The notes: generated from the letters alone by a model not told the origin. A DNA stretch of 64,000 nt from Escherichia phage phiE142 (NC_055709.1), one strand, 5' to 3'; shown: positions 16,330 to 58,981, numbered from the stretch's first letter. A program made the numbers and translations.

Positions 16330-16355
16330 GTAATTTTCCTCATTATCATTAAACT

Positions 16356-16371
16356 GGAGGATTTCTCCTCC
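16356..16371 (-). promoter_or_regulatory. intercistronic hairpin GGAGGA-TTTC-TCCTCC between genes 45 and 44
   Basis: stem formed by SD-like sequence and its complement. Confidence 0.35.
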
Positions 16372-16404
16372 ATAATCGTATCACATTAAACGTAAATCTT
16401 TGAC

Positions 16405-17091
16405 TTAGAAGTCGTGAGTAGAATCGGCTTCCATTGCAATAACATAACTTACTTGAGAGCTTTCAAACTTAGCTGCAACTTTATCACCAGCTCCCCACAA
16501 CATTACTTTATAGTTACCTGGCTGGATTTTCATATTAGCCATATTGATTACGAAGTTAAAGTTGTTAGAACCATCATAATCGGTAAGAGTCAAAGAATAC
16601 TTAGGACGAGTTAGACCGGAATCTTCAACTTTATTATAGCCATTGATAACAATTTTACCATCTTTATTTGTAATAGCAATTGTATCAATCTGGAGACCAC
16701 GTGAAACTCGAAGCAATTGTTGAAGGTCTTCAGCTTTAATTTCAGTAATCACAGAAGCCACTGGGAATTGAATTGGCTTATTAGGAAAAACAATGGTGCT
16801 CTTGTCGGCAGCAGGCCAATAAACTGTGGAACGTGTATCTGCAATTTTAATATTGCCATCAGTGTGCATTGAAATTTCAGCATCATCAGACACTAGACTC
16901 AAAATGCTTAAGAAGCTATTCAAATCATAAAGTGCTACGTCAAAATCAATTTCATCAGAGATATTTGCTTCCGCATAAGTGGTGCCATTAACTGCACGAG
17001 TCATAATAAATTTACCTTGACTCAGCAGAATGCCTGAGTTAATAGAGGCAAAGTTTTTCAGAATAGCGATAGTATCTTTAGACAGTTTCAT
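16405..17091 (-). CDS. 45: gp45 sliding clamp
   Basis: MKLSKDTIAILKNFASINSGI as in T4 gp45; track TTG extension trimmed to ATG. Confidence 0.9.
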   Translation of the reverse strand: MKLSKDTIAILKNFASINSGILLSQGKFIMTRAVNGTTYAEANISDEIDFDVALYDLNSFLSILSLVSDDAEISMHTDGNIKIADTRSTVYWPAADKSTIVFPNKPIQFPVASVITEIKAEDLQQLLRVSRGLQIDTIAITNKDGKIVINGYNKVEDSGLTRPKYSLTLTDYDGSNNFNFVINMANMKIQPGNYKVMLWGAGDKVAAKFESSQVSYVIAMEADSTHDF

Positions 17092-44372: not shown

Positions 44373-44390
44373 AGGCCTAAGTATAGGCCT
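44373..44390 (-). promoter_or_regulatory. AGGCCT-AAGTAT-AGGCCT hairpin just downstream of IPIII-like gene
   Basis: palindromic 6-bp stem adjacent to stop codon. Confidence 0.35.
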
Positions 44391-44392
44391 TA

Positions 44393-44971
44393 TTAATTAC
44401 CACGGGCTGCATTAGCAACGGCGTAAGCATACTGAATATTAGCGTCTTTAAACGTACCTTTAGAGGTATCTATTTCCGCCTTAAAGCCGCCTTTAGCCAT
44501 AACATCGGCAAATTCTTTACGGAAAGCCATTGCATCAAGACCTTTCCATGATGATTTATGCTTGGCAAATTCAAGACCAGCGTAGTTGACAGCTTTAGCC
44601 AATTTATTATCAATGACCCATTTACCTGCTTTAGGCACAAACTTCGGGCCTTTTTGTTTAGAGAACAGTTTTAAATTCCAGCGACGAAGGTCACTGTCGG
44701 CTTTAACAAAAGCTGCGTCTAAGTTACTAGCAACGACATCTTCAATATGAGCAAATTTAAGTCCGTCAACTTCAATATTTAGATCGTTACGCCAGCGTAG
44801 TCCTTCCCAAGCGAAGGCTTTAAAATCAGAAGCTTTTGTGGCTAGATATCGTTCAAGTGGAGCAGTTTTAGGGTCAAAACCATTTCCGCCACGATAATTC
44901 CACTCGTCCTTATTAATGCCTTGGACTTTTCCTGCAAAGGCCTCGGCGATAAATTCTTTATATGTTTTCAT
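44393..44971 (-). CDS. internal (injected) head protein, IPIII-like, with capsid-targeting sequence
   Basis: N-terminus MKTYKEFIAEA; Lys/Ala-rich; early promoter upstream. Confidence 0.7.
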   Translation of the reverse strand: MKTYKEFIAEAFAGKVQGINKDEWNYRGGNGFDPKTAPLERYLATKASDFKAFAWEGLRWRNDLNIEVDGLKFAHIEDVVASNLDAAFVKADSDLRRWNLKLFSKQKGPKFVPKAGKWVIDNKLAKAVNYAGLEFAKHKSSWKGLDAMAFRKEFADVMAKGGFKAEIDTSKGTFKDANIQYAYAVANAARGN

Positions 44972-44999
44972 TTTTGTTTCCTTGTTTGTTTTGATAGAG

Positions 45000-45031
45000 T
45001 AATTATACCATATTAATACTTAAGCGTAAAC
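45000..45031 (-). promoter_or_regulatory. early promoter for IPIII-like gene (GTTTAC, 18-nt spacer, TATAAT)
   Basis: consensus hexamers with correct spacing. Confidence 0.55.
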
Positions 45032-45034
45032 AAT

Positions 45035-45295
45035 TTAAGCTTTACCGCCAGAAATAATTCCGAAGTTGTTAAAATCGTATCCAATATCGTCAGCATCTAC
45101 TTTAGGACTTGCTACAACATAAGCAATTTCACGACGTTTTGCATAGGTGTTTATTTCTTTACCGTTGCCACCTAAGAAAGAATACCCATTACGTTTTAAT
45201 GAGCCAAAGTCTTCGGCATCACCAACGAAAGCTTTAACTTTAAATTTGGGGTCTTTGGCATCCGCTTCAGTGATAAATTCTTGATACATTTTCAT
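45035..45295 (-). CDS. internal head protein, IPII-like, with capsid-targeting sequence
   Basis: N-terminus MKMYQEFITEA. Confidence 0.65.
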   Translation of the reverse strand: MKMYQEFITEADAKDPKFKVKAFVGDAEDFGSLKRNGYSFLGGNGKEINTYAKRREIAYVVASPKVDADDIGYDFNNFGIISGGKA

Positions 45296-45301
45296 TTTTC
45301 C

Positions 45302-45715
45302 TTAGTAAATTGATTTACCATAGTATTTGTACCAAGTGGGACGTTGAGCAATTTTTTCATCTAAGCGTGCTTGACTTATCGCAATGGACGCTTCGGACGG
45401 GACATAATTATTACGAAATTCTACAGGAATGTCGGAAATATCCTGGACTGTCGTGTCCTTGATTTTGAAACCACGTTTCAAACATTCAGCTATTAGCTCG
45501 ATTTGACGTAAACGTAAAAATTCGAGTTTGTCGTAAAAGAATGTTACGTGGCCCGTGCCTAAAATAAATGTTGGAGAGATTTTAAAATCTTTTACACGTT
45601 TACCATTTTGAACATGTTTACGGACTGCACCGAATACACGAGGTAATTCACGATACTCAGCCATAAGATGTTGGTCGGTCAGTTCAGAAACAAGTGTTAA
45701 ATTGATACGAGTCAT
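45302..45715 (-). CDS. denV: DenV endonuclease V (pyrimidine-dimer DNA glycosylase)
   Basis: [35 protein letters not shown] as in T4 DenV; start trimmed to M5. Confidence 0.9.
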
Positions 45716-45720
45716 AATTT

Positions 45721-45772
45721 CCTCCAAGTAGTTGATAGATGTATAGTATCAAAACCCTTGGAGGAAGTAAAC
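45721..45772 (-). promoter_or_regulatory. PeSL cassette upstream of denV (CCTCCAAG/CTTGGAGG arms)
   Basis: GTTTAC + TATACAT-type -10 in loop. Confidence 0.55.
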
Positions 45773-45773
45773 A

Positions 45774-46055
45774 CTATTTTTCTGAAGCGCCTGAAATATA
45801 TTTTTCAAGACGTTGTTTCATTAACGAGCCGTTCTTAGCGATTTCTTCCGGTTTATCGCACATACGCAGCAGTGCTTCAAGCTTAACGATATCACTGGTG
45901 CGCTCAAATTTGCGAGTATCTATCTTACTGGCAAGTTCAGAAATACGTGCTAATAGACTTTCAGCTTCAACTAAAGCTGCACCTAGCTTAGTTGCAAATG
46001 TGTCAGTAGCTTCATTAAGAATAGATTCTGATAAAAATTCATTATATGTTTTCAT
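45774..46055 (-). CDS. internal-protein-like small protein with capsid-targeting sequence
   Basis: N-terminus [11 protein letters not shown] after trimming to ATG at 46055. Confidence 0.5.
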
Positions 46056-46540
46056 ATATACGCTTTCCAAGTTCCTGTTTTAAATGTTGAGATTACGCGT
46101 TTCGCGCGATTAGGCGTCTGACGATACCATTTAGATTGGGCTAGATTTACTGCCGCTTCATCCCAACGTTTCTGTTGAAGCATACGAAGAGAATTAGTAA
46201 AACCGGCGACGCCTGATACGCCCATTTGGAAGACCATATTGACCAATGCACATCGACGAACCGCATCTAAAGAATCATATACCGGTTTAAGTTTAGCATT
46301 ACCCAAGATTCCGCGAATGGCTTTATCGACGTCTTCATTAAATAACTTTTCAGCCTCATCAAGGGTAATTGTACCGTTGCATTTACGACCGATCATCCTG
46401 TCAAGTTCAGCTTTAGCTACGGCTAAAGACGGGTTCTTTGTTACTAAATGGCCTATGCCAATCGTCCAAAAGCCTTCGGTGTCTTTGTATAAAGTCAGTC
46501 TAAGACCTTCGTCATTACGAAGCATTTCAAATATATTCAT
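46052..46540 (-). CDS. e: e lysozyme (endolysin, T4L family)
   Basis: [23 protein letters not shown]...catalytic E11/D20/T26 context; 162 aa. Confidence 0.95.
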
Positions 46541-46574
46541 AATACCTCCTACGTTTATAGGAGGTATTTATTAC

Positions 46575-47033
46575 TTATAGGATGGTAGTGAGCACCTTAT
46601 ATAATGATTTGCCCATTACATATTCCCATTGAGAAGGTTTAATTAAAGCGAATGCATCAAATTCAGGAATCTGTCGTCCGTCTGGGAATGTATGATAGGA
46701 ATTACAAACACTGTTTCTGAATTGCTCGTGCTCTACAGGGATGGTATATTGGAATAGATGAATATTCTTATTGTCTGAGTAATGATGTTCGCCTAGGTCT
46801 TTCAGGAAGGCAGGGTCATATTGTGTAAACCCAGTTTCTTCTTCGCATTCACGAATAGCGGCTTCAATAGGAGATTCACCTGGCTCGACACGGCCTTTAG
46901 GAATATCCCACCGATGAGCTAATGCACCTTTAGGACGAGAACCAGTTACACGGCCCATGAATAACTCTTTATCTTTTGTCATGAAGATAATACCGGCTGA
47001 TAGTTCTTTCACTTTATTTTTCTTACTCATCAT
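46575..47033 (-). CDS. nudE: NudE Nudix hydrolase
   Basis: Nudix box GRVEPGESPIEAAIRECEEETG. Confidence 0.8.
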   Translation of the reverse strand: MMSKKNKVKELSAGIIFMTKDKELFMGRVTGSRPKGALAHRWDIPKGRVEPGESPIEAAIRECEEETGFTQYDPAFLKDLGEHHYSDNKNIHLFQYTIPVEHEQFRNSVCNSYHTFPDGRQIPEFDAFALIKPSQWEYVMGKSLYKVLTTIL

Positions 47034-47274
47034 CTCGGTCCCATGATTTGGCCATTAATTCGGACATAAATTCTTCAATGCGCGTTTCTTTAGATGGACT
47101 TTCACTATTAGAAACCGCAAGTTTGTAATCTGCAATAGGACAGAACATATCAAGGTCCATATTAAGATCGTCTTTGATTTTTTCTTCTGACACATCTTTA
47201 TCATATGTGTACAGATAACTATCACATGATTCTGATTTAATGTAAATTGCTATACTCATCTCAAATTCCTGCAT
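47023..47274 (-). CDS. hypothetical acidic protein, 83 aa
   Basis: track ORF, ATG verified. Confidence 0.35.
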   Translation of the reverse strand: MQEFEMSIAIYIKSESCDSYLYTYDKDVSEEKIKDDLNMDLDMFCPIADYKLAVSNSESPSKETRIEEFMSELMAKSWDRDDE

Positions 47275-47747
47275 TCGGTAATAAAACGTTCAACTTCATT
47301 ATTCTTGGCCTTTATCTTGTCTTTACGTTCCTGTAAACTACTTTTAACAAGATTAATAATGATGCCTATAGTACCTCCACCAATAATACCACCAATAATA
47401 CTTACGATAGTAGATGCTAATAATATAGCGATAATATCTGGTATGGCAAAGGCACTTACTTTAGTACTAAAAAACCATACCGACGGTACAAATATAATCC
47501 ATCCTGTTATCCATTGGCACTTATTGAAAAACTTTTCAAGCTCAGCTTGAGTTGTTCTTATTACTTCATCGATAGGTTGATATCCATTAATGTATCTGTT
47601 CACGATAATACCTGCTGGCTGGTCGATTTTAAATTCTTGGCAAATACGTTTCACTAAGTAGGATGGACATCCTGTCCAATCTACTGAGTAGTACGAAATA
47701 CCTTCATTACCGTCGTCTATATTAGACCAATATGTTTTGTTAATCAT
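47256..47747 (-). CDS. membrane protein, 163 aa
   Basis: TM helices with Gly-rich segment. Confidence 0.4.
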   Translation of the reverse strand: MINKTYWSNIDDGNEGISYYSVDWTGCPSYLVKRICQEFKIDQPAGIIVNRYINGYQPIDEVIRTTQAELEKFFNKCQWITGWIIFVPSVWFFSTKVSAFAIPDIIAILLASTIVSIIGGIIGGGTIGIIINLVKSSLQERKDKIKAKNNEVERFITECRNLR

Positions 47748-48433
47748 TACCAGCCTTCCATAGGGAATTCCAGATAAACTTGAGCATTGACACGAATTTC
47801 ATTGGTAATCTTTTTAACTCGGTCTGTATTACGAGATACACGTCCGAACCAACGCCATCCATTACTAATTGCACGAGATCCAGTGTGCCATGTTTGCCAA
47901 TCAAACTGAAGAAGAGTACGGTCTGGAGCTTCCCATTTCTCTAGTTCACCTTTTTCAATTTTTTCGAGGACTTCTTTGTGCCACTGGCGATAGATAAGTT
48001 CGCCATCAGGAATCTGACTGAACTCTGCAGTTCCTGTTGCAAAATGAGTAGGACACACGTCAGCGTTAACAAGGCCAAGAATATGTTCAGACAAATAGCG
48101 AGGATTGTCATAGTCAGGTTGTCCTGCAGTAATAAAATGTTGACCAACTGGAATATCCGGGCGTGGTACATCGTCATGGTGATAACCTGGGATAGCAGGG
48201 TACCAACCAGGCATCAGCATGTGGACTCGTGAATCAAATACTACATCCGAGCCTTTCCAATCGTCAGGGAGATTTTGGATAAAGCTACGAGTAATTGGAC
48301 CGCCATTATTAAAAGCAAAATTCAAATCGCAGTTAAAGAACATAGGCTCGTTTTTAATCTGGTCATTTTTAATCTCATGAGCAAAACCACCTACTGCACG
48401 AGCTTGACTATTAAACACTTTAGAACTATTCAT
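47747..48433 (-). CDS. 2OG-Fe(II) oxygenase-like protein
   Basis: candidate H-x-D (GYHHDD) ... H ... R-x-S arrangement; by-eye only. Confidence 0.4.
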   Translation of the reverse strand: MNSSKVFNSQARAVGGFAHEIKNDQIKNEPMFFNCDLNFAFNNGGPITRSFIQNLPDDWKGSDVVFDSRVHMLMPGWYPAIPGYHHDDVPRPDIPVGQHFITAGQPDYDNPRYLSEHILGLVNADVCPTHFATGTAEFSQIPDGELIYRQWHKEVLEKIEKGELEKWEAPDRTLLQFDWQTWHTGSRAISNGWRWFGRVSRNTDRVKKITNEIRVNAQVYLEFPMEGW

Positions 48434-48434
48434 A

Positions 48435-48740
48435 TTATTTTCCTCGACATTCTTTAATGAAATTTTCTAGATTGGTAGATTCAATAGCTTTTTTACGAGC
48501 TTCTGCATGTTCTTCTTCAGACAATTTACATTTATAATTAACCCAGACGTTATGGTCAAAACTAGTCGTGGCATATAATAACAAAGCCCCGACGAATAAT
48601 AAAAATGGTGATAAGAATACAAAACCAGGAGCACCATCCATATCGTAAGCCTTTTGTAATACTGCAACAGAAAGAGCTGCGTAAAAAGGTGATGCAAATA
48701 TTGTAAAAAGACCAATTCGGTTGGTTTCGCCTAATTTCAT
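48435..48740 (-). CDS. membrane protein, 101 aa
   Basis: two TM helices; PeSL upstream. Confidence 0.4.
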   Translation of the reverse strand: MKLGETNRIGLFTIFASPFYAALSVAVLQKAYDMDGAPGFVFLSPFLLFVGALLLYATTSFDHNVWVNYKCKLSEEEHAEARKKAIESTNLENFIKECRGK

Positions 48741-48758
48741 AATATTCTCCTCATGTTT

Positions 48759-48796
48759 TAATAGGACTACTATAACATAGTCCTATAATTGTGTAA
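48759..48796 (-). promoter_or_regulatory. PeSL cassette (ATAGGACTA/TAGTCCTAT arms)
   Basis: identical core to 57541 and 57870 copies. Confidence 0.55.
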
Positions 48797-48810
48797 ACAG
48801 TTTTGCGAAA

Positions 48811-49767
48811 TTATTTGAAAGGTTTTACCATATGGAAATTTTGTTTGAAACGTTTGACGTAATCATCATGTCCTAAGCTTTTATACATACTTACTACTTT
48901 GCTGTAGTTTTCCCAGGCGTATTCACGAAACCAACCGGAGGTGATGCTTGTACAGACTTTTTCCAATGCCATCATAAAACTATCACGTGGATGGATTTTA
49001 AAGTCATTAGGAATCTGAGAACGTTCTAATGCTAGTACACATGATTCTTCGTATACACCGGCCAATTTGACCATTTCTGGTAATGATTCGAACTTCTCGC
49101 GTGAGGTCATGACTTCAGAACCATCTTTCATATAAAATGTATACGCTGGACGGTCCGTTAGTGCAATGGCTTCGTGAATAGTATCATGATCGTATGTGTA
49201 GATATCATCTTTAAAGAATGCGCTTTTAGAAGTGTCAAGAACTGGGTGAGCATAGTTCAAGGTTTCTTTCTGGCGTTTCAGCATAATTTCAGTAAGTTCA
49301 TCGTTCAGTTTAACACCTTTACCACGAAGATACTGAATATGGTTCATAGTCTTTAAAAAGAATGGATTATTTTTCTTGAAACGATGAGACATCTTAATTG
49401 CAAGACACATCTCAGGAGTTGCCCAGTAAAACCCGTTCAAACGGTCTTTAGTCAAATTTTTCTTGGCGTATTTTAAAAGGTCATAAGAAGACGTGAAATC
49501 TTCAGGAGTGAGTTCACCGACTAATTCACGGACATTAGTGATTGCCGGAACAATATATGCTTCAAAATGAGTTTCGCGTCCATTATGGAAGCATTTGAAA
49601 ACTTGGACATCAGGGTTATCTTGGTGAACATATACGCCCATCATTTGATTTTTGAATGCATTCCAAGAACCTTGGTCCGCAATAAAGTCCCAATCACTGT
49701 TTTTGATAGCGCTAGAATCAATAAGGCCGTGATAGTGAAGTGCACGAGAACCAATAACTAACATCAT
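48811..49767 (-). CDS. hypothetical 318-aa protein, possible nucleotidyltransferase fold
   Basis: N-terminal LVIGSRALHYHG...DWDFIAD (G-S...D-x-D) pattern; weak. Confidence 0.4.
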   Translation of the reverse strand: MMLVIGSRALHYHGLIDSSAIKNSDWDFIADQGSWNAFKNQMMGVYVHQDNPDVQVFKCFHNGRETHFEAYIVPAITNVRELVGELTPEDFTSSYDLLKYAKKNLTKDRLNGFYWATPEMCLAIKMSHRFKKNNPFFLKTMNHIQYLRGKGVKLNDELTEIMLKRQKETLNYAHPVLDTSKSAFFKDDIYTYDHDTIHEAIALTDRPAYTFYMKDGSEVMTSREKFESLPEMVKLAGVYEESCVLALERSQIPNDFKIHPRDSFMMALEKVCTSITSGWFREYAWENYSKVVSMYKSLGHDDYVKRFKQNFHMVKPFK

Positions 49768-49795
49768 AATATTTTCCTCTGATTAATTCATTAAC

Positions 49796-50047
49796 TTAAA
49801 TTTCACGACATGCGATATTATATTCATCCCAGAGGTCGTCATGTGAAGCCTCTACCAATGGAACGATTGTACCGTTTATGTCTTCATTATAAGGACAAAT
49901 TGTACAGTGCGCATCTTCGAATCGTATGCCTTTGTGTTCAGATTTTTTATAACGCATATCGAATATCTTTGCAAACTTTTCACGAGTAATAGTTTTAGCA
50001 ACTACTTCGGTTCCGATACTTTCGTAATAAATCATTGTAGACTCCAT
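49796..50047 (-). CDS. hypothetical protein, 83 aa
   Basis: track ORF, ATG verified. Confidence 0.35.
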   Translation of the reverse strand: MESTMIYYESIGTEVVAKTITREKFAKIFDMRYKKSEHKGIRFEDAHCTICPYNEDINGTIVPLVEASHDDLWDEYNIACREI

Positions 50048-50054
50048 TTAATTT

Positions 50055-50093
50055 GATAGGACTACTATAACATAGCCCTATCTTGTTGTAAAC
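50055..50093 (-). promoter_or_regulatory. PeSL cassette (imperfect AGGACT/AGGGCT arms)
   Basis: GTTTAC + TGTTATAGT. Confidence 0.5.
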
Positions 50094-50097
50094 TGTT

Positions 50098-50295
50098 TTA
50101 GCAAGAATAACTAGACGATACCCAGCCTTGAACAGTAATACTATTATTTGATAACGAGATTGCGTCCTGGAGATTAAGACCTGCGTTATCTTCAATCCAC
50201 AATGTAACTTCTTCACGCTCTTCGGTTGCAATCTGGAACAGGTTTTCTAGAGCAGCTACTGCGGTACGTACAGCACAATCTAATTCACGAGACAT
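50098..50295 (-). CDS. small protein, paralog family member (C-terminus ...GWVSSSYSC)
   Basis: tandem paralogs share C-terminal W-V-S/A-S-S-x-x-C tail. Confidence 0.45.
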   Translation of the reverse strand: MSRELDCAVRTAVAALENLFQIATEEREEVTLWIEDNAGLNLQDAISLSNNSITVQGWVSSSYSC

Positions 50296-50304
50296 ATGGT
50301 TTCC

Positions 50305-50577
50305 TTAGCAAGTGTGAGAAGATGCAACCCAACCGCCATCTTCAAGGCTCAAGTTGTAGTCGTATTGGTAAACATCGGCCCATTCAGCATAACCGTTTTT
50401 TGTACAACGTTCAAGATCGGCTTTAAGATGTCCGGGTGAATGATAGGTTCCACCCATACCATAAGCTGGATACAAGTCGAATGTTGTGTTTTGTTTATTA
50501 GCAATTTCTTTGGCAGCCTCAATAGCTGCATAGATTTTTGCTACGGCTTCAGCCAGTTCGGTTTGTTCTTTAGACAT
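50305..50577 (-). CDS. small protein, paralog family member (C-terminus ...GWVASSHTC)
   Basis: as above. Confidence 0.45.
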   Translation of the reverse strand: MSKEQTELAEAVAKIYAAIEAAKEIANKQNTTFDLYPAYGMGGTYHSPGHLKADLERCTKNGYAEWADVYQYDYNLSLEDGGWVASSHTC

Positions 50578-50586
50578 AATGATTCC

Positions 50587-50892
50587 TTAGCACAATGCAG
50601 AAGACGAAACCCAAGCACCTTCAGTAATAACATAACCATTACCTTCACGCTTAACATCACCACCATTATTTTCAATTTCATCTTTCATCCACTGGGATAC
50701 AATTTCACCCTTAGGATAATAAGTACGACCGCTACCATAATCACCTACAGAAAACGATACGGCGTATTGGTCTGCGATCTTTGTTGCTTCTTCTTCGATA
50801 CGTTCAGCTTGATTCAGAAGTTTATAAATTGCATCTGAAGCGGATTTGGCATCATTAAACTCTGGTACTTTAATTTCAATAATCTTACTCAT
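50587..50892 (-). CDS. small protein, paralog family member (C-terminus ...AWVSSSALC)
   Basis: as above. Confidence 0.45.
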   Translation of the reverse strand: MSKIIEIKVPEFNDAKSASDAIYKLLNQAERIEEEATKIADQYAVSFSVGDYGSGRTYYPKGEIVSQWMKDEIENNGGDVKREGNGYVITEGAWVSSSALC

Positions 50893-50990
50893 TTTCTACA
50901 TTCCTTAATAAAGTTTTCGATTGTTTCATTTTCACGTCTAGCTAGGAGTTCATTATAACTAATCATTTGAGAAGCGTAAACAGCATAAAT

Positions 50991-51383
50991 TCAGTTCAGG
51001 CTTTTGCATCTTATTTCCTTAACGAATTCCATAGCTTCTTCATATTCATACTTTTTAACAGCTTCATCATACTGAGCTTGGGCTTTTGCGCACTGAACTT
51101 TCCATTCTCTTAATCGGGCTCTGTGATGACGGCCTTGGTGCCAATATCCTACCCAATTAATAGGCATTAATAAAAACGGTACAATAAGTGGTGCGACGAA
51201 CATTAATGAAAACGCTGCATCAGACGATATAACTTTATTGGAATCTAAAATAGCTCCTATAATCATAAAGATTAAAAATGCTAAAGCTAAAATAGGACCA
51301 AATAGTACTTCATTTGGGATTAATTTACGCTTGTATTCATACGCCCAGGGCTTAATTGGCATGTATAGGGTTGGCTTTGACAT
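50991..51383 (-). CDS. membrane protein
   Basis: TM helices; start uncertain (track start is TTG). Confidence 0.35.
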   Translation of the reverse strand: MSKPTLYMPIKPWAYEYKRKLIPNEVLFGPILALAFLIFMIIGAILDSNKVISSDAAFSLMFVAPLIVPFLLMPINWVGYWHQGRHHRARLREWKVQCAKAQAQYDEAVKKYEYEEAMEFVKEIRCKSLN

Positions 51384-51948
51384 ATTCTCTACATTCCATA
51401 ATAAATTGCTCAAGGATTAAATTGTTAGTGAAATTAGGACTAACAACCATAGTTTCATAAAGCGCATCAATAGCACTTAAAGCATCAACTCTTTTAAGCA
51501 AAGGCTTGCCTTCATACATAGTTTCAGAATCGACGATTAACGTAAAGTAATATTTTTTATTATCGACTAGAACTTCTGTATCGATATAAAACATATTAGA
51601 CCTCAGAAGCTTATCTCTAAAACCATAATAATCTTCAGAGCGTTCGCTGATATATTCCAATTCAGTGTTTAAACAACAAACAGACCATGTAGGAGCAACG
51701 AAATCAGTGAATCTAATATCATGATCTGCAACTAGTTTAGCAATAGCTCCGATATCATGAATCATAATACCTGGGGCTAATAAAGATTTTCGGTTATTTG
51801 CATATTCAGTTGTCTCATAAGAAGACGACCAATACCATTTACGTCCAGTTGCAACATATCGTAATGAATCAACTAAAGACGTAGGTGGATTTACCTTATC
51901 TCGGAACTCTTCGAACATTGAGTCAATATCATTATTTTGGTTTCGCAT
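51352..51948 (-). CDS. hypothetical protein
   Basis: trimmed to ATG with AAGGAG SD. Confidence 0.4.
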   Translation of the reverse strand: MRNQNNDIDSMFEEFRDKVNPPTSLVDSLRYVATGRKWYWSSSYETTEYANNRKSLLAPGIMIHDIGAIAKLVADHDIRFTDFVAPTWSVCCLNTELEYISERSEDYYGFRDKLLRSNMFYIDTEVLVDNKKYYFTLIVDSETMYEGKPLLKRVDALSAIDALYETMVVSPNFTNNLILEQFIMECREYVKANPIHAN

Positions 51949-51997
51949 GTTAACTCCTTTATTATCCAAAAGGAGGACCGGAGTCCTCCGTATTATT

Positions 51998-52591
51998 TTA
52001 TTTCAAAGAGTTAATATATTCTTGTACATCAGCAGAAGTGGTTTCAACACCGGCTGGAGTGCCATTGAATGTTTCAACACGAGTCAGAGTGTCTTCGATA
52101 TCAACCTTAGTCAGTGCAGCAATTTCGATTACATCATCAGCCGTAGAGATACCAAGGGCATTGGCTGCTCGAGTTTCGCGGATGTATTCAAGTTTGATTG
52201 CCAGATTCTGACGAGCATCATCAAGTTCAACCACCTTACGAGCAATTTCAATTCGCATGGCGGCATACCCGTCAGCTTTTGTATTAAGTTGTTCGGCGGT
52301 TCGACGATACAGAAGACCAAGCTTAGCATGCATGGTAACATCTTGTCCTTCAGCCAGGAGCTTACGAATTTCACGTTCCTTAGAAGCGGCTTGCTTGTTC
52401 TTTTCATTAACAAGTTCGCGAATACGTTTTTCTTCATTAATAGATTTAATAGAAGCAGTTTTTAGTTCTTTGATTTGGGTAATCAACTTATCTGCAGCTG
52501 CGTTATACTGTTCTTCGACAGTCAGATTTTTAGCCATAGCAGTACCCAGTTTAGTGCGGATGAATTCAACAAGTTTCTTCAGTGTGTTCAT
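51998..52591 (-). CDS. coiled-coil protein (PspA-like architecture, uncertain)
   Basis: long heptad-like helical sequence; trimmed to ATG. Confidence 0.4.
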
Positions 52592-52662
52592 ATTATTACC
52601 TTTCAATTGGTGGTTTTATTATCCAACGAGAGCATTATACTCTGCTCTCAAGAGTTTGTAAA

Positions 52663-52890
52663 TTATTTTTTAATCAAATTGACATAAAACTTGGCGTCTT
52701 CTGGGTGCATGCCTTCGCAGTATTCTTCAACCATGAACTTCTTAACAGCTTCATAAGGACCACTCAGATTAAGCTCAGTTGTCCAGAACTTGGAATCTTG
52801 GACTGAATCGATACGAACTTCAGGGTGACGGTTGCGAATAACTTCTTCGGTGTATTCATAATCAACGACATCAATACTAACTGTAGCCAT
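52663..52890 (-). CDS. hypothetical protein, 75 aa
   Basis: track ORF, ATG verified. Confidence 0.35.
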   Translation of the reverse strand: MATVSIDVVDYEYTEEVIRNRHPEVRIDSVQDSKFWTTELNLSGPYEAVKKFMVEEYCEGMHPEDAKFYVNLIKK

Positions 52891-52910
52891 TTTGTTTCTC
52901 CTCTTGATTT

Positions 52911-52948
52911 GATAGGTCTATAGTAACACCGTCCATGGTGTTTGTACA
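52911..52948 (-). promoter_or_regulatory. promoter-like cassette (TGTACA -35-like, TGTTACTAT -10)
   Basis: GATAGGTCTATAGTAACAC core. Confidence 0.35.
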
Positions 52949-53479
52949 TCATTTATTTTTAATTTTGCAAATTTTTCCAGCTTCGATACATGCAGCATAG
53001 ATGATGCTCTGGGCAATTTTATTGCTAGTAGACCTTGCAATCACACTAAGAACAATTTCTTTTTCTTCACCACCACAACCCCAGGACCTTTGCTCATGAG
53101 TACCTTTAACTACGGCTGAAACTTCAACAGAACGTCCGCCATCAGAAGTTTTAACATCTACAACCCAATCGCCATCTTTCTCTTCAACCTGTGGTTTATC
53201 CCAAGAAATACTAATATATGATTCACTGTCAATAGAAGTCGCCGGGTTTTTCTTTACTGTAAGACCTTCACTTTCCAGCCATTCAATAGTATTTGCGCAT
53301 AAATCAGAAGAACACCTCATCGGAAACTGGCAAGATTTTTCACCTTTAGCTGCAGCGTTATACATCTTTTCTAAAATACGCTTTTGCACGTTTTTAAAAA
53401 TAGTTTCAGCAGATTCTTCAGATTTTTTATTCAGTTCAGTATAAAGACTCATAACATTCTTCTCATTAATAGGGCTCAT
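52949..53479 (-). CDS. hypothetical protein, 176 aa
   Basis: track ORF, ATG verified. Confidence 0.4.
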   Translation of the reverse strand: MSPINEKNVMSLYTELNKKSEESAETIFKNVQKRILEKMYNAAAKGEKSCQFPMRCSSDLCANTIEWLESEGLTVKKNPATSIDSESYISISWDKPQVEEKDGDWVVDVKTSDGGRSVEVSAVVKGTHEQRSWGCGGEEKEIVLSVIARSTSNKIAQSIIYAACIEAGKICKIKNK

Positions 53480-53509
53480 AATATCTCAATCATAAGCCCA
53501 TGTACGCAT

Positions 53510-53773
53510 TTATTTCATATTATCGAAATATTCTTCAGCGATTTCGACATTATCATGGTAAACTTTAGAAGACAGTTTAACATAACCTTCTGCTGCGAAC
53601 ATATTAATCACAACCTTTACAGTATACCATTGTCCGTCTTCATTACCCATTACTGCGTAAGTTTCAAACATCGGATGGTTAGGTCCAATAACTTTAATAT
53701 CATTCACCGTACGTCCGAAATCTTCTGGAACGCATTTCATAAAGAAATTGAACAGTTCACCGTAATTATCCAT
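53510..53773 (-). CDS. hypothetical protein
   Basis: trimmed from TTG to ATG with GGAGA SD. Confidence 0.35.
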   Translation of the reverse strand: MDNYGELFNFFMKCVPEDFGRTVNDIKVIGPNHPMFETYAVMGNEDGQWYTVKVVINMFAAEGYVKLSSKVYHDNVEIAEEYFDNMK

Positions 53774-53804
53774 TTCATTCTCCAAGGTTTTTCTGTATCA
53801 GTGG

Positions 53805-53845
53805 TTGATAGTTGTATAGTACCACGGAAGAACAGGGATGTAAAC
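53805..53845 (-). promoter_or_regulatory. early promoter (GTTTAC, TACTATAC -10)
   Basis: upstream of 53510-53773. Confidence 0.45.
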
Positions 53846-53981
53846 AGTTTTGTGAAAAAAAATTTAAAAAGTTTTTTTGGGGAATTCTAGAGCAGGGAGG
53901 GGAAATCAAAGGATAGAATAATATATTATAAAGGGCAGAAACTAAATGATGCCTAGAGAGGCCTGGAAAGGCCTAGATACC

Positions 53982-54006
53982 AAAAAGCCCTATCTAAATG
54001 ATAGGG
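53982..54006 (-). terminator. rho-independent terminator (CCCTATC-TAAAT-GATAGGG + U-run) after IP-like gene
   Basis: 7-bp stem + CTTTTTG on minus strand. Confidence 0.55.
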
Positions 54007-54014
54007 ATTTAAAA

Positions 54015-54578
54015 TTATTTACCTAGTTTAGTTATTATAGCTTCGGCAGCAGCTTTTAGCTTAGATGCAGTGTTAATACGATTTTTAATTTCAGTATACG
54101 CATCGCCAAGAACATCAAGGCTATCAGAATAAACACTTACACTATTGCGTTCGCTATTTGAAATAGAACCTTTAGTTTTACGATCAAAATCAGTGTACAC
54201 GTCTTGAAGATCACGGGCCGCCTTCTTTGCATCATCCAATGCATCAAGAGCTTTATTCAAAGCATTGACATATTTTTTAGTGTCAAACATATTCTTAGAA
54301 ATTTTAACGGGTGCACGTTCAGGAGTAGCTAAGGCGGATTTAGGAACCTGCGTGCCAGATGCCAGTTTCTTAGAAATTTTGAAAAACGCTTTATTGAAAC
54401 TATTTTCTTGACTCATCGTAAAAGAACTAGTATCGATGTTATACATTTCAATAGCTTTAGCTTTCCACTTAAGAAAATCGCCACGGTCTTTTGGATCCAA
54501 GTTGAAGAATACTTTAGTAAGATCTGCTTCAGATGGTAATTTTGCTGCTTCGGTTAAAAATTCGGCGTAGGTTTTCAT
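54015..54578 (-). CDS. internal-protein-like protein with capsid-targeting sequence, 187 aa
   Basis: N-terminus MKTYAEFLTEA; terminators on both sides. Confidence 0.55.
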   Translation of the reverse strand: MKTYAEFLTEAAKLPSEADLTKVFFNLDPKDRGDFLKWKAKAIEMYNIDTSSFTMSQENSFNKAFFKISKKLASGTQVPKSALATPERAPVKISKNMFDTKKYVNALNKALDALDDAKKAARDLQDVYTDFDRKTKGSISNSERNSVSVYSDSLDVLGDAYTEIKNRINTASKLKAAAEAIITKLGK

Positions 54579-54666
54579 TTAAAATCCTTGAAATAATTTA
54601 TCGGTTGGTTATTAATTATTTATTACTTTGGTATTATCAGTAACAGCATTCTCTGAGAGATTCAAA

Positions 54667-54696
54667 CTAAAAAGCCCCAACCTTTTGGCTAGGGCT
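54667..54696 (-). terminator. rho-independent terminator after IP-like gene
   Basis: AGCCC...GGGCT hairpin + U-run. Confidence 0.5.
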
Positions 54697-54703
54697 AAGA
54701 ATG

Positions 54704-55168
54704 TTATTTGATTTGTTTAGCAGACCAAATGCGGTCTTTAATAAGTTTTTGGATATCTTCAACATACTCAAGGCTATGAGCGTGAGGATTATCTTTGAAG
54801 CTATGTGCTCGTGCCAGTTTCTGGCCTTCAGTTTTGATTACCAAAAGTTCTTTAAGAATTGCTTCATACTTAGAAATAATTCCTTTGGCGATATTTTTTT
54901 CTTGAGCTGCTTTAGGGCCCGCTTTTGGTGCTGGTGCTTTACCTGTAGCTTTCTGGAACAATTCACCTGATGCAGCTAGGCTTTTAAAAACTCGGCTAAC
55001 AGTATTAGCATTAGTAAAACCTTCGGCTTTAAAATCTCTAATAAAACGGAAACGTTCTTCATCAGAGGCGTCTTTGTAAGAATATTTACCTGCTTGAATT
55101 GCTGCAATCGCAGCGGCTTTTACATCTGAACTAGATTGTTCAGTCAAAAATTCTGCATATGATTTCAT
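54704..55168 (-). CDS. internal-protein-like protein with capsid-targeting sequence, 154 aa
   Basis: N-terminus MKSYAEFLTEQ. Confidence 0.55.
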   Translation of the reverse strand: MKSYAEFLTEQSSSDVKAAAIAAIQAGKYSYKDASDEERFRFIRDFKAEGFTNANTVSRVFKSLAASGELFQKATGKAPAPKAGPKAAQEKNIAKGIISKYEAILKELLVIKTEGQKLARAHSFKDNPHAHSLEYVEDIQKLIKDRIWSAKQIK

Positions 55169-55214
55169 GTTACTTTTCCTAAGTTAATTAACTTATCTAT
55201 TTATTATTATTATG

Positions 55215-55244
55215 CAAAAAAGCCCCAACCTTTCGGAAGGGGCT
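55215..55244 (-). terminator. rho-independent terminator closing the tRNA/stable-RNA islet
   Basis: bulged 9-bp GC stem + TTTTTT on minus strand. Confidence 0.55.
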
Positions 55245-55295
55245 AAGCCTTGCGGCAGCCTTGTCGGGGTTCCACCTGCTAAGGCAAGTGTTTGT

Positions 55296-55386
55296 ACGAA
55301 ACGCCGGGATTCGAACCCGGTTATTAAGCAGTTGACGCTACTCAATATTTTTAAAGGCCATATCTCGACCATATCCGAACGTTCCG
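55296..55386 (-). other. tRNA-like fragment: T-arm plus acceptor 3' half without a canonical cloverleaf (possible tRNA remnant or stable-RNA 3' domain)
   Basis: minus-strand CCGGGTTCGAATCCCGG T-arm followed by 7-nt acceptor-like strand; no foldable D/anticodon arms. Confidence 0.3.
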
Positions 55387-55556
55387 TCAAAAACGCTACT
55401 CGGCTTACGGCAAAGATATTTCCTCGAATCGATAATTCTGTGCGCCGTTTCTGCTGTGATGTAAGGGGATATTAACGAATCATAAAGATTTATTAAGACC
55501 AGTCCTTACTCAGGGAACATCAGTCCGACGACTTGCCGGTAGCGACCCGGCTTCTC

Positions 55557-55901
55557 TTATTTTGGCATATCATCAATTTGCTCTCTACGCCGACGCCATA
55601 GATTAATCGCTTCATAGGCACATTCTGCGTTTGGTATATGACGGCAATAATATAATGATTCACGTTTCTGAAACCGATGTTGCAATGGGATTTCGTTTAA
55701 AAGGTCTTTGCGATCAAAGTATTCAAAACTAGTTAACCCGGAACGGTTTTTAATGAACTTCCAATGACCGAATTCATTTTGAACATAGATGTAATCGGCA
55801 TGCTGATAAAGTGAATTAATCAATCGATGAGAAATAACTGTATCATATTCATTAAAATAAAACGTTAAATCATGAACTACTAAGTAAACATTACCTTTCA
55901 T
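55557..55901 (-). CDS. hypothetical protein embedded in the tRNA islet
   Basis: ATG at 55901 with GAGGA SD; track TTG extension would overlap tRNA-Arg. Confidence 0.35.
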   Translation of the reverse strand: MKGNVYLVVHDLTFYFNEYDTVISHRLINSLYQHADYIYVQNEFGHWKFIKNRSGLTSFEYFDRKDLLNEIPLQHRFQKRESLYYCRHIPNAECAYEAINLWRRRREQIDDMPK

Positions 55902-55919
55902 ATTTTCCTCACTTATAAT

Positions 55920-55996
<77 letters not shown>

Positions 55997-56002
55997 AATA
56001 TA

Positions 56003-56076
56003 TGACCCAGACCAGATTCGAACTGGTAACCTTTCCCTTATGAGGGGACTGCTGCTAACCGTTGAGCTACAGGGCC
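56003..56076 (-). tRNA. probable tRNA with CAU anticodon (Met or Ile2-type)
   Basis: T-arm ACCAG-TTCGAAT-CTGGT, anticodon loop CTCATAA; acceptor has one mismatch and D-arm is atypical. Confidence 0.5.
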
Positions 56077-56155
56077 TAAATAACTTTCTATTATGAAAGG
56101 CACTTTAGAGCACCTTTGGTAATAGAGGGTATGAATTAATAATAACACATAATTC

Positions 56156-56671
56156 TTAAAGCAAATCAATCATTTTAACAGTCGGCAAAATGATTTCTTC
56201 TTCAATATAAGCAAATTCAACACATTCAACTACACGCAAGAAATCATAATCATAATATTCAGAAGCATGGCCAAGAATATCAATGAGACCTTCTGATACT
56301 AAATATCCATTCTCACGGAACAGGTCAAATACACGTGATTCGTCTTCTTCAGATTTATTACCAAGGTCGACTTCAATATCAAAGACCTTTTTAATGAATT
56401 CTGGATAAAGCTGGTCTGAGAACAGTCCTTCAACCAGATATTCGTAGATAATAAGCGAGCAATCACTGAATGGTGTATTACCGCAATAACGTTCGGCTTT
56501 GGTGCTAGAATGACGACTCTTAAATTTCTTCAAAAGATATTTAAACTGTTGGAGCTCATGCTCTTCCACTTCAAACAATGTTTTGGTTTTATAGTTGTCA
56601 CCATCGTTTTCATAGGTAGTGACATCAATTACGTAACCTTTAGGTATTGTACTGCCTAAACAAATATTCAT
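56156..56671 (-). CDS. hypothetical acidic protein, 171 aa
   Basis: track ORF, ATG verified. Confidence 0.4.
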   Translation of the reverse strand: MNICLGSTIPKGYVIDVTTYENDGDNYKTKTLFEVEEHELQQFKYLLKKFKSRHSSTKAERYCGNTPFSDCSLIIYEYLVEGLFSDQLYPEFIKKVFDIEVDLGNKSEEDESRVFDLFRENGYLVSEGLIDILGHASEYYDYDFLRVVECVEFAYIEEEIILPTVKMIDLL

Positions 56672-56675
56672 TTAC

Positions 56676-56966
56676 TCACCGTACCATATTAATGTAATTA
56701 TATTCAATGCAACGTAATTTCAAAGGATTCTTGAAAATATCATATTCAAGAGGGCCTTTTTCTGTTTCAATAAAGAAATCAAAGTTAACTGTGTTAAATT
56801 TATAATCTTCACAGAGTAATTTAACTTGCGAAGACGAACGGTCGATATAAACCTTTTCAACCTCAAAGTTAGTCAGAATACCGTAGTCATCAACTAGTGC
56901 TTTAGCTGCACGTTGATCGCTTTCGTATCCGTTCTCAATAGATGACACTTTAGCATAAAGAATCAT
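56676..56966 (-). CDS. hypothetical protein, 96 aa
   Basis: track ORF, ATG verified. Confidence 0.35.
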   Translation of the reverse strand: MILYAKVSSIENGYESDQRAAKALVDDYGILTNFEVEKVYIDRSSSQVKLLCEDYKFNTVNFDFFIETEKGPLEYDIFKNPLKLRCIEYNYINMVR

Positions 56967-57325
56967 GAATGTTCCACCACTTCAAAGCTATGGGCATCAA
57001 CAATATGATACCAGTCAAAATTTTCTTCTGCGTTTTTATAAATTTCGCGAAGAGCCTCAACGGTTTTTCCTGTAGCAACAAGGTCGTCAATACCACCAAG
57101 AGGATAACAGTCGTAACCAGCAAACAGAAGGAAATTAATAGTTTCTGTAGGTTCTGGATGCAGAACACCGTTATCATCTACCACTTCAAAGAAAGTGTAA
57201 GAAGGAGTACAAGTTTTAATCCAAGCCCATGCTTGAGCTGCCGAATCAAATGGTCTACGTATCAAACGACAATCAGGGTCTTTAGAAGGATTTGCTTCAA
57301 AATCTGCATATACATGATATTTCAT
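56963..57325 (-). CDS. hypothetical protein, 120 aa
   Basis: track ORF, ATG verified. Confidence 0.4.
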   Translation of the reverse strand: MKYHVYADFEANPSKDPDCRLIRRPFDSAAQAWAWIKTCTPSYTFFEVVDDNGVLHPEPTETINFLLFAGYDCYPLGGIDDLVATGKTVEALREIYKNAEENFDWYHIVDAHSFEVVEHS

Positions 57326-57532
57326 TTACTCACCTTTTGCAATTTTATCCATAACAATAGCGATTAAACCGATTAGAAATGCTACTACCAATGAGATAGA
57401 ATTTTCGGTTGTTGTCAGTAGTCCGCAAATGAATCCTACAAACATCGAAAAACTAAAAGCCATTGAAGCAATTACTACAGCAACATTACGAATCAGTTCA
57501 GCGCGTTTCATTTTATTTCTCCATTTACTCAT
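57326..57532 (-). CDS. small membrane protein, 68 aa
   Basis: TM helices; PeSL upstream. Confidence 0.35.
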   Translation of the reverse strand: MSKWRNKMKRAELIRNVAVVIASMAFSFSMFVGFICGLLTTTENSISLVVAFLIGLIAIVMDKIAKGE

Positions 57533-57540
57533 TTTGTTTT

Positions 57541-57579
57541 GATAGGACTACTATAACATAGTCCTATAGGCTTGTATAC
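57541..57579 (-). promoter_or_regulatory. PeSL cassette (ATAGGACTA/TAGTCCTAT arms, GTATAC -35-like)
   Basis: family member. Confidence 0.5.
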
Positions 57580-57581
57580 CT

Positions 57582-57845
57582 TTATTTCAAATATATTGCG
57601 TATTTTTTATAGCCACCAGGCTCATGTCGAAGACCTTTATCATTCGCAAAACGTTGAATGTTATTGAACTGATTTTCGTCAAGTTCGGATGTGTTAAATA
57701 TGAAAAAGTTTCGTTTGTTACCAAGCGTGATATGCGGAGTTAAGTCAATGTTATACAAATTAAGAATATCAGCAATAACCTGATTGACCGCTTTGTTAAT
57801 TTTCACACCAGACGATTCTGAGATGAATTCGTTGAAAGTTTTCAT
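57582..57845 (-). CDS. internal-protein-like small protein with capsid-targeting sequence
   Basis: N-terminus MKTFNEFISES after trimming to ATG. Confidence 0.5.
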   Translation of the reverse strand: MKTFNEFISESSGVKINKAVNQVIADILNLYNIDLTPHITLGNKRNFFIFNTSELDENQFNNIQRFANDKGLRHEPGGYKKYAIYLK

Positions 57846-57869
57846 TTTAGGTTCCATTTTGTTGTTTTG

Positions 57870-57907
57870 TTAGGACTACTATAACATAGTCCTACCAAGA
57901 TGTAAAC
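57870..57907 (-). promoter_or_regulatory. PeSL cassette (TAGGACTAC/TAGTCCTA arms, GTTTAC)
   Basis: family member upstream of IP-like gene. Confidence 0.55.
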
Positions 57908-58218
57908 TATTTTATGCCTTTAGATGAAATAGTGTTCTGGCGTTTAACCCCAGTTTGTGAAAAATCATGGTTATCAATTTGGTCAACTCGCATAACACCA
58001 AACGCAGATTTAATTTTGGCCTTTGAACCTTTTTTGATACTAATTACCATATAAGTGTCATTTTTCTTATATTCGTAATTTGATACTTCAACGCCTTGAT
58101 TAGAAATTGACTTAATAATAGCATTAGCGTATTCATCATCTAATGGGCCGTTAGTGTTAATAACAAAATTTTTATCCGCTTTAGTAGCTTCAGCGATGAA
58201 TTCTTTATAGGTTTTCAT
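57907..58218 (-). CDS. internal-protein-like protein with capsid-targeting sequence (IPI-like position)
   Basis: N-terminus MKTYKEFIAEA; adjacent to acb1/57A as ipI is in T4. Confidence 0.55.
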   Translation of the reverse strand: MKTYKEFIAEATKADKNFVINTNGPLDDEYANAIIKSISNQGVEVSNYEYKKNDTYMVISIKKGSKAKIKSAFGVMRVDQIDNHDFSQTGVKRQNTISSKGIK

Positions 58219-58243
58219 TTTATTTCCTTGAGGCTGTTTATTT

Positions 58244-58282
58244 GATAGGATGATAGTAACACACCATCATCTTTATGTAAAC
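58244..58282 (-). promoter_or_regulatory. PeSL cassette (GATGAT/ATCATC arms, GTTTAC)
   Basis: upstream of IPI-like gene. Confidence 0.5.
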
Positions 58283-58295
58283 TGTTTTGTGAAAA

Positions 58296-58981
<686 letters not shown>

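Follow-up and report, generated by a model that had tools for sequence, protein, structure and literature searches.

Internal proteins of T4 and a probable internal-protein set in phiE142

The prohead core and the gp21 prohead protease are core genes of the T4-like phages. The internal proteins (IP or Ip) of T4 carry an N-terminal capsid-targeting sequence (CTS) with an (I/L)-x-E motif ahead of a small basic body, have early-type promoters and are encoded at sites by e/denV and by 57B; IPIII is a classically established head protein. Within a 64,000-nt stretch (the window) of Escherichia phage phiE142 (NC_055709.1), a set of seven genes between positions 44393 and 58218 resembles that of T4 in these respects, and we consider it very likely that it is the Ip set of an RB69-like Mosigvirus, coding for CTS-targeted, injected effectors. 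It differs from the T4 set in that only Ip3 is common to both, the other six bodies having no T4 counterpart, and in that the leader of T4 IPI is longer (19 residues).

Three elements of this reading come from the literature and not from the present analysis: the CTS rules, the action of T4 Ip1–3 on GmrSD enzymes, and the detection of Gp140 in virions of Yersinia phage fD1 (see below). According to the summary of Mullaney & Black (1996) in PMC9026906, mutagenesis of the IPIII leader maps targeting mainly to residues 4 and 7, and processing depends on residues 8 and 10, with Asp10 stopping cleavage and not targeting. T4 Ip1, Ip2 and Ip3 inhibit GmrSD type IV restriction enzymes, a different one in each case, the target of Ip3 being the two-gene GmrSD of ECOR17 (Silas et al. 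2025); IPIII is required on ECOR17 and works from a host plasmid without its CTS (Srikant et al. 2022). More than 30 IP variants are known (Arbiol et al. 2010); IPs are not discussed in Petrov (2010). The polymorphic T-even families Ip4–Ip13 (Repoila et al. 1994), curated in RB32, RB15 and K3, include relatives of three of our proteins, Ip5, Ip9 and Ip7. Further afield, the P1 Dar proteins are described as head-packaged, injected and protective of P1 against restriction, and the ejection proteins of the giant phage SPN3US as head-packaged and injected, with propeptides removed by the prohead protease; unlike the proteins above, these have unrelated sequences and targeting signals and may serve as functional analogies only.

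Since variable injected anti-restriction sets sharing only the leader are already established, the seven genes add little conceptually. The first-pass annotation had read them as T4-type injected anti-defence candidates, and the kind was right: the leaders follow the CTS rules, and the current literature regards such proteins as injected effectors against host defences. This interpretation matches the accepted model of internal proteins and so is not new, and the framing of the repertoire as new or unusual is not supported. The new points are modest: a third CTS-cassette site, its two widespread and unrecognised late-promoter members, and leaderless relatives of Ip9.

A six-frame scan of the whole window for MK[TMS][YF]xEF[IL][ATS]E gave exactly seven matches, all on the minus strand. 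Two looser CTS patterns returned the identical seven open reading frames (ORFs) with no extras, and a scan of the whole window for MK.[YFW]..F in ORFs of at least 40 aa again found these seven alone. In 200 shuffled sequences the strict motif occurred on average 0 times and the loosest pattern 0.045 times. The ORF listing, the motif scan and the shuffles confirmed the seven ORFs with a T4-type leader that had been claimed for this region (a slash marks the predicted cut):

44393–44971, minus strand: Ip3 (IPIII orthologue), 192 aa, leader MKTYKEFIAE/A
45035–45295, minus strand: RB69ORF125c-type internal protein, 86 aa, leader MKMYQEFITE/A
45774–46055, minus strand: Ip5-family internal protein, 93 aa, Ser after the residue-10 cut
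54015–54578, minus strand: CTS protein of PHROG 2280, 187 aa, leader MKTYAEFLTE/A
54704–55168, minus strand: CTS protein of PHROG 2280, RB32ORF133c/fD1 g140 type, 154 aa, leader MKSYAEFLTE/Q
57582–57845, minus strand: Ip9-family internal protein, 87 aa, leader MKTFNEFISE/S
57907–58218, minus strand: Ip7-family internal protein, 103 aa, leader MKTYKEFIAE/A

All seven leaders have an aromatic residue (Y/F) at position 4 together with F7, on which targeting depends, and I/L8 together with E10, on which processing by gp21 depends. Residues 8–10 read, in coordinate order, IAE, ITE, LSE, LTE, LTE, ISE and IAE, and the residue after the predicted cut is Ala in four proteins, Ser in two and Gln in one (54704–55168). 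A Shine-Dalgarno (SD)-like sequence lies 6–13 nt 5' of every ORF, and the conserved stretch of the CTS genes comprises the SD-to-ATG region and the first 10 codons. Since the codons for Thr3 (ACA, ACC, ACT) and for I/L8 (ATC, TTA, TTG) vary synonymously between the genes, the leader is conserved at the protein level. We rejected the possibility that the motif is a chance or DNA-level artefact, as no match is expected in random sequence, the leader codons vary synonymously and the key residues are invariant family-wide.

The predicted mature bodies are of 8–20 kDa, and six of the seven are basic (pI 8.2–9.7, that is, above 8), as are the T4 IPs; the exception is Ip5, with a pI of 6.3. At the BLAST level the earlier statement of mutually different bodies is borne out, the best E-value between any two being 0.002, but 54015–54578 and 54704–55168 both belong to PHROG 2280 and share one predicted architecture, and 45035–45295 and 57907–58218 both match PHROG 2667. 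Pfam and NCBIfam scans of all seven proteins gave nothing above threshold.

We propose that the 10-residue leader would attach each protein to the scaffolding core while the prohead is being assembled, and that gp21 would cut there after Glu10 of the (I/L)-x-E motif. The genes for gp21 and the scaffold are located beyond the window, and their presence is expected of a T4-like phage. The freed, mostly basic body would then stay in the DNA-filled head, enter the cell with the DNA and act there at once, most plausibly as a specific inhibitor of a "first-response" defence of the host; type IV restriction enzymes of the GmrSD type, which attack sugar-modified hydroxymethylcytosine (hmC) DNA, provide the precedent for such a target. 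The genes would form a set of exchangeable cassettes at three hot spots, namely vs.8 to e, trna.4 to 57B, and the rnaC terminator to e.8.

The window shares 98.6% identity with Escherichia phage phiC120 and ~96% with RB69, both Mosigvirus, and an exact-sequence comparison gave an identical phiE142 protein for each of the seven (ALY07944 to ALY07973). The gene order (vs.8, ip genes, denV, e, nudE ... e.8, small RNAs/tRNAs, trna.2–4, ip genes onward and, past this second ip group, 57B, 57A, gene 1 and gene 3) is as in RB69 and T4. Five of the seven genes sit in the canonical Ip loci, vs.8 to e (Ip3, the ORF125c type and Ip5) and trna.4 to 57B (Ip9 and Ip7). All five fall in PHROG families named internal head or virion protein, are so named in the phiE142 RefSeq record, and are, judged by homology, described Ip types: Ip3, Ip5, Ip7, Ip9 and the RB69ORF125c type.

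Ip3 shares 92% identity with T4 IPIII and 98% with phiC120 c236 and matches PHROG 5341, "internal virion protein" (E=3e-117), which is also the name of its phiE142 entry, ALY07944; a weak hairpin (44373–44390) lies directly 3' of it, and a solved-structure sequence search with it returned no match. The protein of 45035–45295 is 92% identical to RB69ORF125c and matches PHROG 2667, "internal head protein" (E=1.5e-21), a name given in some records of its homologues and in phiE142 ALY07945. Its gene adjoins denV (45302–45727), which it directly follows, and, like Ip5, which directly follows e, it is without a promoter of its own. A protein cluster at 90% identity that holds this protein also holds DenV endonuclease V sequences (137 aa), which looks like a clustering artefact, perhaps from fused or misannotated neighbours. 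Ip5 is 48% identical to RB32 Ip5 and 92% to RB69ORF127c, two proteins that the curated RB32 note ties together, and matches PHROG 3499, "internal head protein" (E=1e-46). Its start codon overlaps the stop of the lysozyme gene e (ATGA), and it has a second L-x-E site (LNE/A) at residues 13–15.

At the second canonical locus, Ip9 (PHROG 7673, "internal head protein") is 71% identical to RB32 Ip9, belongs to a family that takes in RB15 Ip9 (Q38376), and fills the slot held by Ip1 in RB69 and phiC120. An alternative in-frame ATG at 57857, four codons 5' of its start (57846–57857; MEPK-MKTF...), was chosen as the start in the phiE142 RefSeq record (91 aa), as was done for RB69 ipI. No obvious SD precedes this upstream ATG, and the MK start agrees with T4; were the longer form produced, the leader would no longer be N-terminal. 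Ip7 adjoins gene 57B, is 68% identical to RB32 Ip7 and 97% to RB69ORF156c, and matches PHROG 2667 (E=2e-38); a T2 record is among its database matches.

In order to judge how usual seven such genes are, every ORF with a CTS-like start was collected across eight genomes, within their homologous regions, and the bodies were clustered. This gave 12 CTS families, with slot occupancy varying among close relatives:

CTS ORFs per genome: window 7; RB69 7; phiC120 7; ChristianSchoenbein 7
CTS ORFs per genome: Shf125875 6; RB32 5; p000v 4; T4 3

Since sister Mosigviruses carry six to seven, seven is the norm of the genus. The "expanded repertoire" of the first-pass annotation is therefore an expansion relative to T4 but not relative to these sisters, and the counts led us to reject an expansion specific to the window phage. 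Ip1 and Ip2 are absent from the CTS set of the window in this census, and Ip5 is placed between denV and e in Mosigvirus and in the ipI locus in RB32. Prevalence was taken as the number of matching records among 50,697 phage records:

Matching records: Ip3 259; ORF125c type 216; Ip5 495
Matching records: 54015–54578 163; 54704–55168 510; Ip9 171; Ip7 276

The family of 54704–55168 is the most widespread CTS family measured. Each family is thus found in 163–510 records as against 991 that match the region at the DNA level; the CTS proteins are small and accessory, and their families are patchy even among near-identical genomes. All seven CTS genes are intact in the window, whereas RB69 has three decayed-looking copies. 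RB69 ORF127c (extract 7815–8096) has a decayed-looking leader, MKTYMNFYQN; in ORF123c (extract 6342–6671) Ala replaces Glu10; and ORF149c/148c (extract 16321–16883) looks like a copy of 54015–54578 split by a frameshift, matching it in two pieces.

Two cassettes between rnaC and e.8

The two PHROG-2280 genes, 54015–54578 and 54704–55168, lie outside both canonical Ip loci, between rnaC and e.8. We treat location in an Ip locus as a descriptive feature of the family and not as a mechanistic requirement. The features of this site are:

53991–55216, minus strand: insertion of ~1.2 kb relative to T4, holding both PHROG-2280 cassettes and bounded by GCCCC...GGGGC terminator hairpins
55295–55432, minus strand: rnaC stable RNA, 98% identical to T4 rnaC (species-1 RNA)
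55440–55556, minus strand: rnaD stable RNA, 86% identical to T4 rnaD

The 3' end of T4 rnaC with its terminator aligns to 55340–55217 and the adjoining T4 sequence to 53990–53741; the insertion falls at the T-tract of the rnaC terminator, which in T4 joins the e.8 upstream region directly. The upstream border of the site is formed by rnaC and rnaD. No Rfam family matched the small RNA 5' of 54704–55168, which was recognised as rnaC/rnaD by comparison with T4, and these stable RNAs appear to be without an Rfam family. ARAGORN calls part of rnaC a "tRNA-Stop, anticodon tta".

Both cassettes have the same anatomy. For 54704–55168 the order is the rnaC terminator (55217–55247), a AATAAATA box 29 nt ahead of the ATG, SD, ORF and a terminator copy (54673–54696); for 54015–54578 it is a terminator copy (54669–54699), the late-type AATAAATA box 38 nt ahead of the ATG, SD, ORF and a terminator at 53988–54006. 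The 31-nt GC-rich terminator hairpins at 55217–55247 and 54669–54699 are 87% identical. Compared with T4 (extract 8625–8908), the cassette junctions lie at GCCCC...GGGGC hairpins followed by T-tracts and recall the GGGC/GCCC motifs at T4 deletion end-points, known to us through the citation of Mosig (1998) in Arbiol et al. (2010).

The exact T4 late promoter, TATAAATA, stands at the orthologous position in the Tequatrovirus genes RB32ORF133c and fD1 g140, and the ATAAATA core was kept in 10 of 10 aligned loci. Within the window an exact TATAAATA was found near none of the seven genes; the late-promoter call for the PHROG-2280 genes is based on a 7/8 match to it and on the canonical boxes at the orthologous loci. 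No MotA-type middle promoters were seen by eye 5' of the two genes. The timing of expression expected from a late-type box fits a head component.

Occupancy of the site varies: there is no cassette in T4 and one each in RB32, fD1, Shf125875 and RB69, the RB69 one being apparently frameshifted, whereas phiC120, ChristianSchoenbein and the window have two. The site resembles the PeSL cassettes of Arbiol et al. (2010), in which small accessory genes lie between repeated promoter/stem-loops permitting excision, insertion and shuffling, except that the repeat here consists of a rho-independent, GC-rich terminator with a late-type promoter after it, in place of an early promoter with a stem-loop. 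A 94-aa metagenomic protein (P0009) is a chimera whose N-terminal part is like the trna.3-type protein (window 56963–57325) and whose last ~30 residues are ~90% identical to the C-terminus of 54704–55168. It gives direct evidence of recombination inside these cassettes.

The protein of 54704–55168 is 75–76% identical to RB32ORF133c and fD1 g140, which share with it the same rnaC–e.8 site, the same kind of leader and the repeated flanking terminator. They differ in having a 15-residue leader with two L-x-E sites and the exact TATAAATA, compared with the 10-residue leader and AATAAATA box of 54704–55168, and in standing as a single cassette compared with two in the window. The family is confined to T4-like enterobacterial phages. 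Across it, M1, K2, Y4, F7 and E10 are invariant, with bodies diverged to 77–79% identity, and the longer leader variants (MKSYAQFLNEAVLNE/A) retain the L-x-E/A site.

Both proteins match the PHROG 2280 hidden Markov model ("unknown function") over their full length (E ~1e-53), and the phiE142 RefSeq record calls both a "hypothetical protein" (54015–54578 being KNT13_gp160). Among the 30 named cluster members and the matches listed (40 for 54015–54578, 16 for 54704–55168), they are never named internal protein, and the matches listed either call them hypothetical or leave them without annotation; in this the pair differs from the T-even Ip families, having no Ip name in the annotations and cluster names examined. 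Their bodies have no BLASTP match to each other, and hhalign gave a weak alignment of 32% probability over 26 C-terminal columns. AlphaFold (AF2) models (mean confidence, pLDDT, of 74 for 54704–55168 and 62 for 54015–54578) predict a layout shared by both, in which a small N-terminal helical bundle is joined through a disordered Pro/Ala/Lys linker to a helical hairpin at the C-terminus. Foldseek searches gave only generic helical matches in the PDB (ferritins, E >0.4, TM ~0.3) and, in BFVD, the family itself and one uncharacterised protein of Serratia phage PS2. A solved-structure sequence search with 54015–54578 gave no meaningful match, the two weak hits being ETV6 fusions (E=0.04–0.08) to the N-terminal 50 residues.

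Among the Ip loci named in the accessible literature, the site from the rnaC terminator to e.8 does not appear; a mention in Repoila (1994) or Comeau (2007) is possible. We tentatively suggest, as a possibility worth serious consideration, that it is an unrecognised third Ip cassette hot spot, holding none, one or two late-promoter, terminator-bounded cassettes for packaged, injected effectors, possibly with targets other than GmrSD. It is very probable that two common "hypothetical" proteins of T4-like coliphages (163 and 510 records in GenBank) are members of the injected-protein class. The practical value lies in correcting their annotation and in a short candidate list, with the two PHROG-2280 proteins extending beyond the ip1–10 screens; the findings also bear on host-range prediction for therapeutic T4-like phages.

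Probable packaging and possible functions of the bodies

We infer that the seven proteins are packaged, cleaved and injected, and likewise that those other than Ip3 have anti-defence targets. The closest virion data are liquid chromatography–tandem mass spectrometry (LC-MS/MS) of purified fD1 virions, in which Gp140 was flagged as particle-associated along with Gp129 (Ip4) and Gp146 (Ip1), and the neighbours g128, g138, g139 and g145 were not. Gp140 being a homologue, this supports the packaging of 54704–55168 without being decisive. A literature search for virion proteomics of Mosigvirus (PhAPEC2, fPS-65/90) found none.

With regard to targets, the only one of the seven with homology to an Ip of known GmrSD target is Ip3 (44393–44971), while in the other six any similarity to Ip1, Ip2 or Ip3 is confined to the leader. 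The blanket claim of the first-pass annotation that the targets are unknown is not supported, since the target of T4 Ip3 is known (the ECOR17 GmrSD) and Ip4–10 have already been screened; by name, our Ip5, Ip7 and Ip9 fall within that screened range. The inhibitor tests of Silas et al. (2025) covered ip1–10 alone, and the PHROG-2280 proteins are presumably outside them.

The relatives of Ip9 offer a different view of its body. A tblastn search with Ip9 matched non-T4 phages of 44–58 kb from about residue 14 on. SHAK7858_0056 (vB_EcoM_SHAK7858, extract 4007–4225) and SHIN8_0081 of a Seuratvirus (extract 3992–4216) are leaderless proteins of 72–74 aa that share 57% and 43% identity, respectively, with the Ip9 body, and their neighbours are small hypothetical genes, with no adjoining annotated head genes. 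Both carry an "internal head protein" annotation, which is probably a misleading annotation transfer. An exhaustive HMMER search of 1.84 billion representatives returned 11 relatives of Ip9, of which four have a CTS-like leader (P0130, P0135, P0136, P0138) and five have none (P0131, P0132, P0134, P0137, P0139). In alignments the leaderless relatives start 5–8 residues past the predicted Glu10 cut. Since they begin near the cut site, mature Ip9 corresponds roughly to a free-standing phage protein, to which a targeting tag has been joined. This supports a portable leader on an autonomous effector body. Taken with the proposed third hot spot, it may mean that the 10-residue leader is all that T4-like phages need to add in order to bring free-standing accessory proteins into the head. 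The leaderless relatives are also a route to the function of Ip9, as the same body is presumably cytoplasmic in those phages.

Several points weigh against the interpretation of all seven proteins as injected anti-defence effectors. The fD1 data set is permissive, with 113 of 277 proteins flagged, the 57A chaperone included. When Ip4–10 were set against a panel of GmrSD variants, no reproducible inhibition was seen (Silas et al. 2025), and therefore a GmrSD target is established for Ip1–3 only. In 54704–55168 the cut site is followed by Gln, compared with Ala or Ser in the other six. Furthermore, the leader is not always maintained, since RB69ORF127c and ORF123c keep the gene with a degenerate leader. 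Finally, the predicted PHROG-2280 fold gave no functional lead in Foldseek searches of the PDB and BFVD.

The best-surviving alternative is that the proteins are injected effectors for host take-over, as is Alt, the packaged ADP-ribosyltransferase, or act against defences other than type IV. Alt provides the precedent of a packaged, processed host-modifying enzyme, yet Pfam and NCBIfam scans detected no enzymatic domain in the seven proteins, and all three Ips of known function inhibit GmrSD-family enzymes. The negative results with Ip4–10 are in favour of this alternative, as are the two-domain helical PHROG-2280 models, which are unlike IPI* (two beta sheets flanked by helices), and the leaderless Ip9 relatives in phages without known hmC DNA; against this, GmrSD diversity is very large and few variants have been tested. 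On balance we consider this alternative unlikely.

It is improbable that the proteins are structural or physical head components, serving as basic DNA counter-ions or accessory scaffold, with the diversity of bodies reflecting weak constraint and no arms race. T4 IP genes are dispensable on laboratory hosts. The slower head assembly and smaller burst of IPIII mutants, the basic pI of six of the bodies, the binding of T4 IPs to DNA at low salt, their ~300 copies each and the contact of internal-protein lysines with DNA phosphates would all suit such a role, but Ip1, Ip2 and Ip3 each neutralise a specific GmrSD, host-expressed IPIII without a CTS restores plating, and each family is patchy among near-identical genomes. 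In addition, the leaderless Ip9 body occurs in phages with unrelated heads, and since the body exists as a free-standing protein an effector role is favoured over a head-structural one for Ip9.

That the leader is in some of the seven, especially the PHROG-2280 pair, a relic carried by recombination of gene-start modules on proteins that are not packaged would fit a conserved stretch that spans the SD-to-ATG region besides the first 10 codons, the degenerate-leader copies of RB69 (in which the leader persists or decays independently of the body) and the unusual Gln of 54704–55168, but is hardly likely in view of the five invariant leader residues in that family despite the divergence of its bodies, the retained L-x-E/A site of its longer leader variants, the late-type promoter fitting a head protein, the finding of fD1 Gp140 in virions, and the synonymous codon variation within the leader.

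Promoters and repeated elements at the canonical loci

A promoter of the T4 early type, GTTTAC-N17-TAnnnT with a TG extension, lies 60–64 nt upstream of Ip3, of Ip9 and of Ip7; that of Ip3 is GTTTAC-N17-TATAAT, ~60 nt upstream. In T4 the same hexamer lies 61 nt 5' of ipI and ~80 nt 5' of ipII and ipIII. At the second locus the promoter forms part of a repeated element:

57535–58304, minus strand: element made up of an early promoter and a palindrome (GTTTACA...TAGGACTATGTTATAGTAGTCCTA), present in three copies that bracket Ip7 and Ip9, from repeat and promoter scans

The palindrome in the Ip7 and Ip9 promoters is of 8 bp, TAGGACTA...TAGTCCTA, and the promoter with its palindrome lies upstream at 57863–57929 for Ip9 and at 58238–58304 for Ip7. 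The T-even Ip families are alike in this, their Ip7 and Ip9 being bracketed by repeated early-promoter/stem-loop elements, and the RB32 annotation gives a 43-bp direct repeat flanking Ip7 and Ip9. The three copies correspond to the PeSL-like elements known from Ip loci (Arbiol et al. 2010; Repoila 1994).

Repeated elements are found at 48754–48820, 50049–50115, 52898–52928, 57535–57601, 57863–57929 and 58238–58304; they are PeSL-like and precede several small accessory genes beyond the ip genes. Three tandem small ORFs on the minus strand, 50098–50295, 50305–50577 and 50587–50892 (65, 90 and 101 aa), all end in GWV(A/S)SSxxC and correspond to DNA repeats at 282-nt spacing in the RB69ORF136c–139c region; they look like a small paralogous family.

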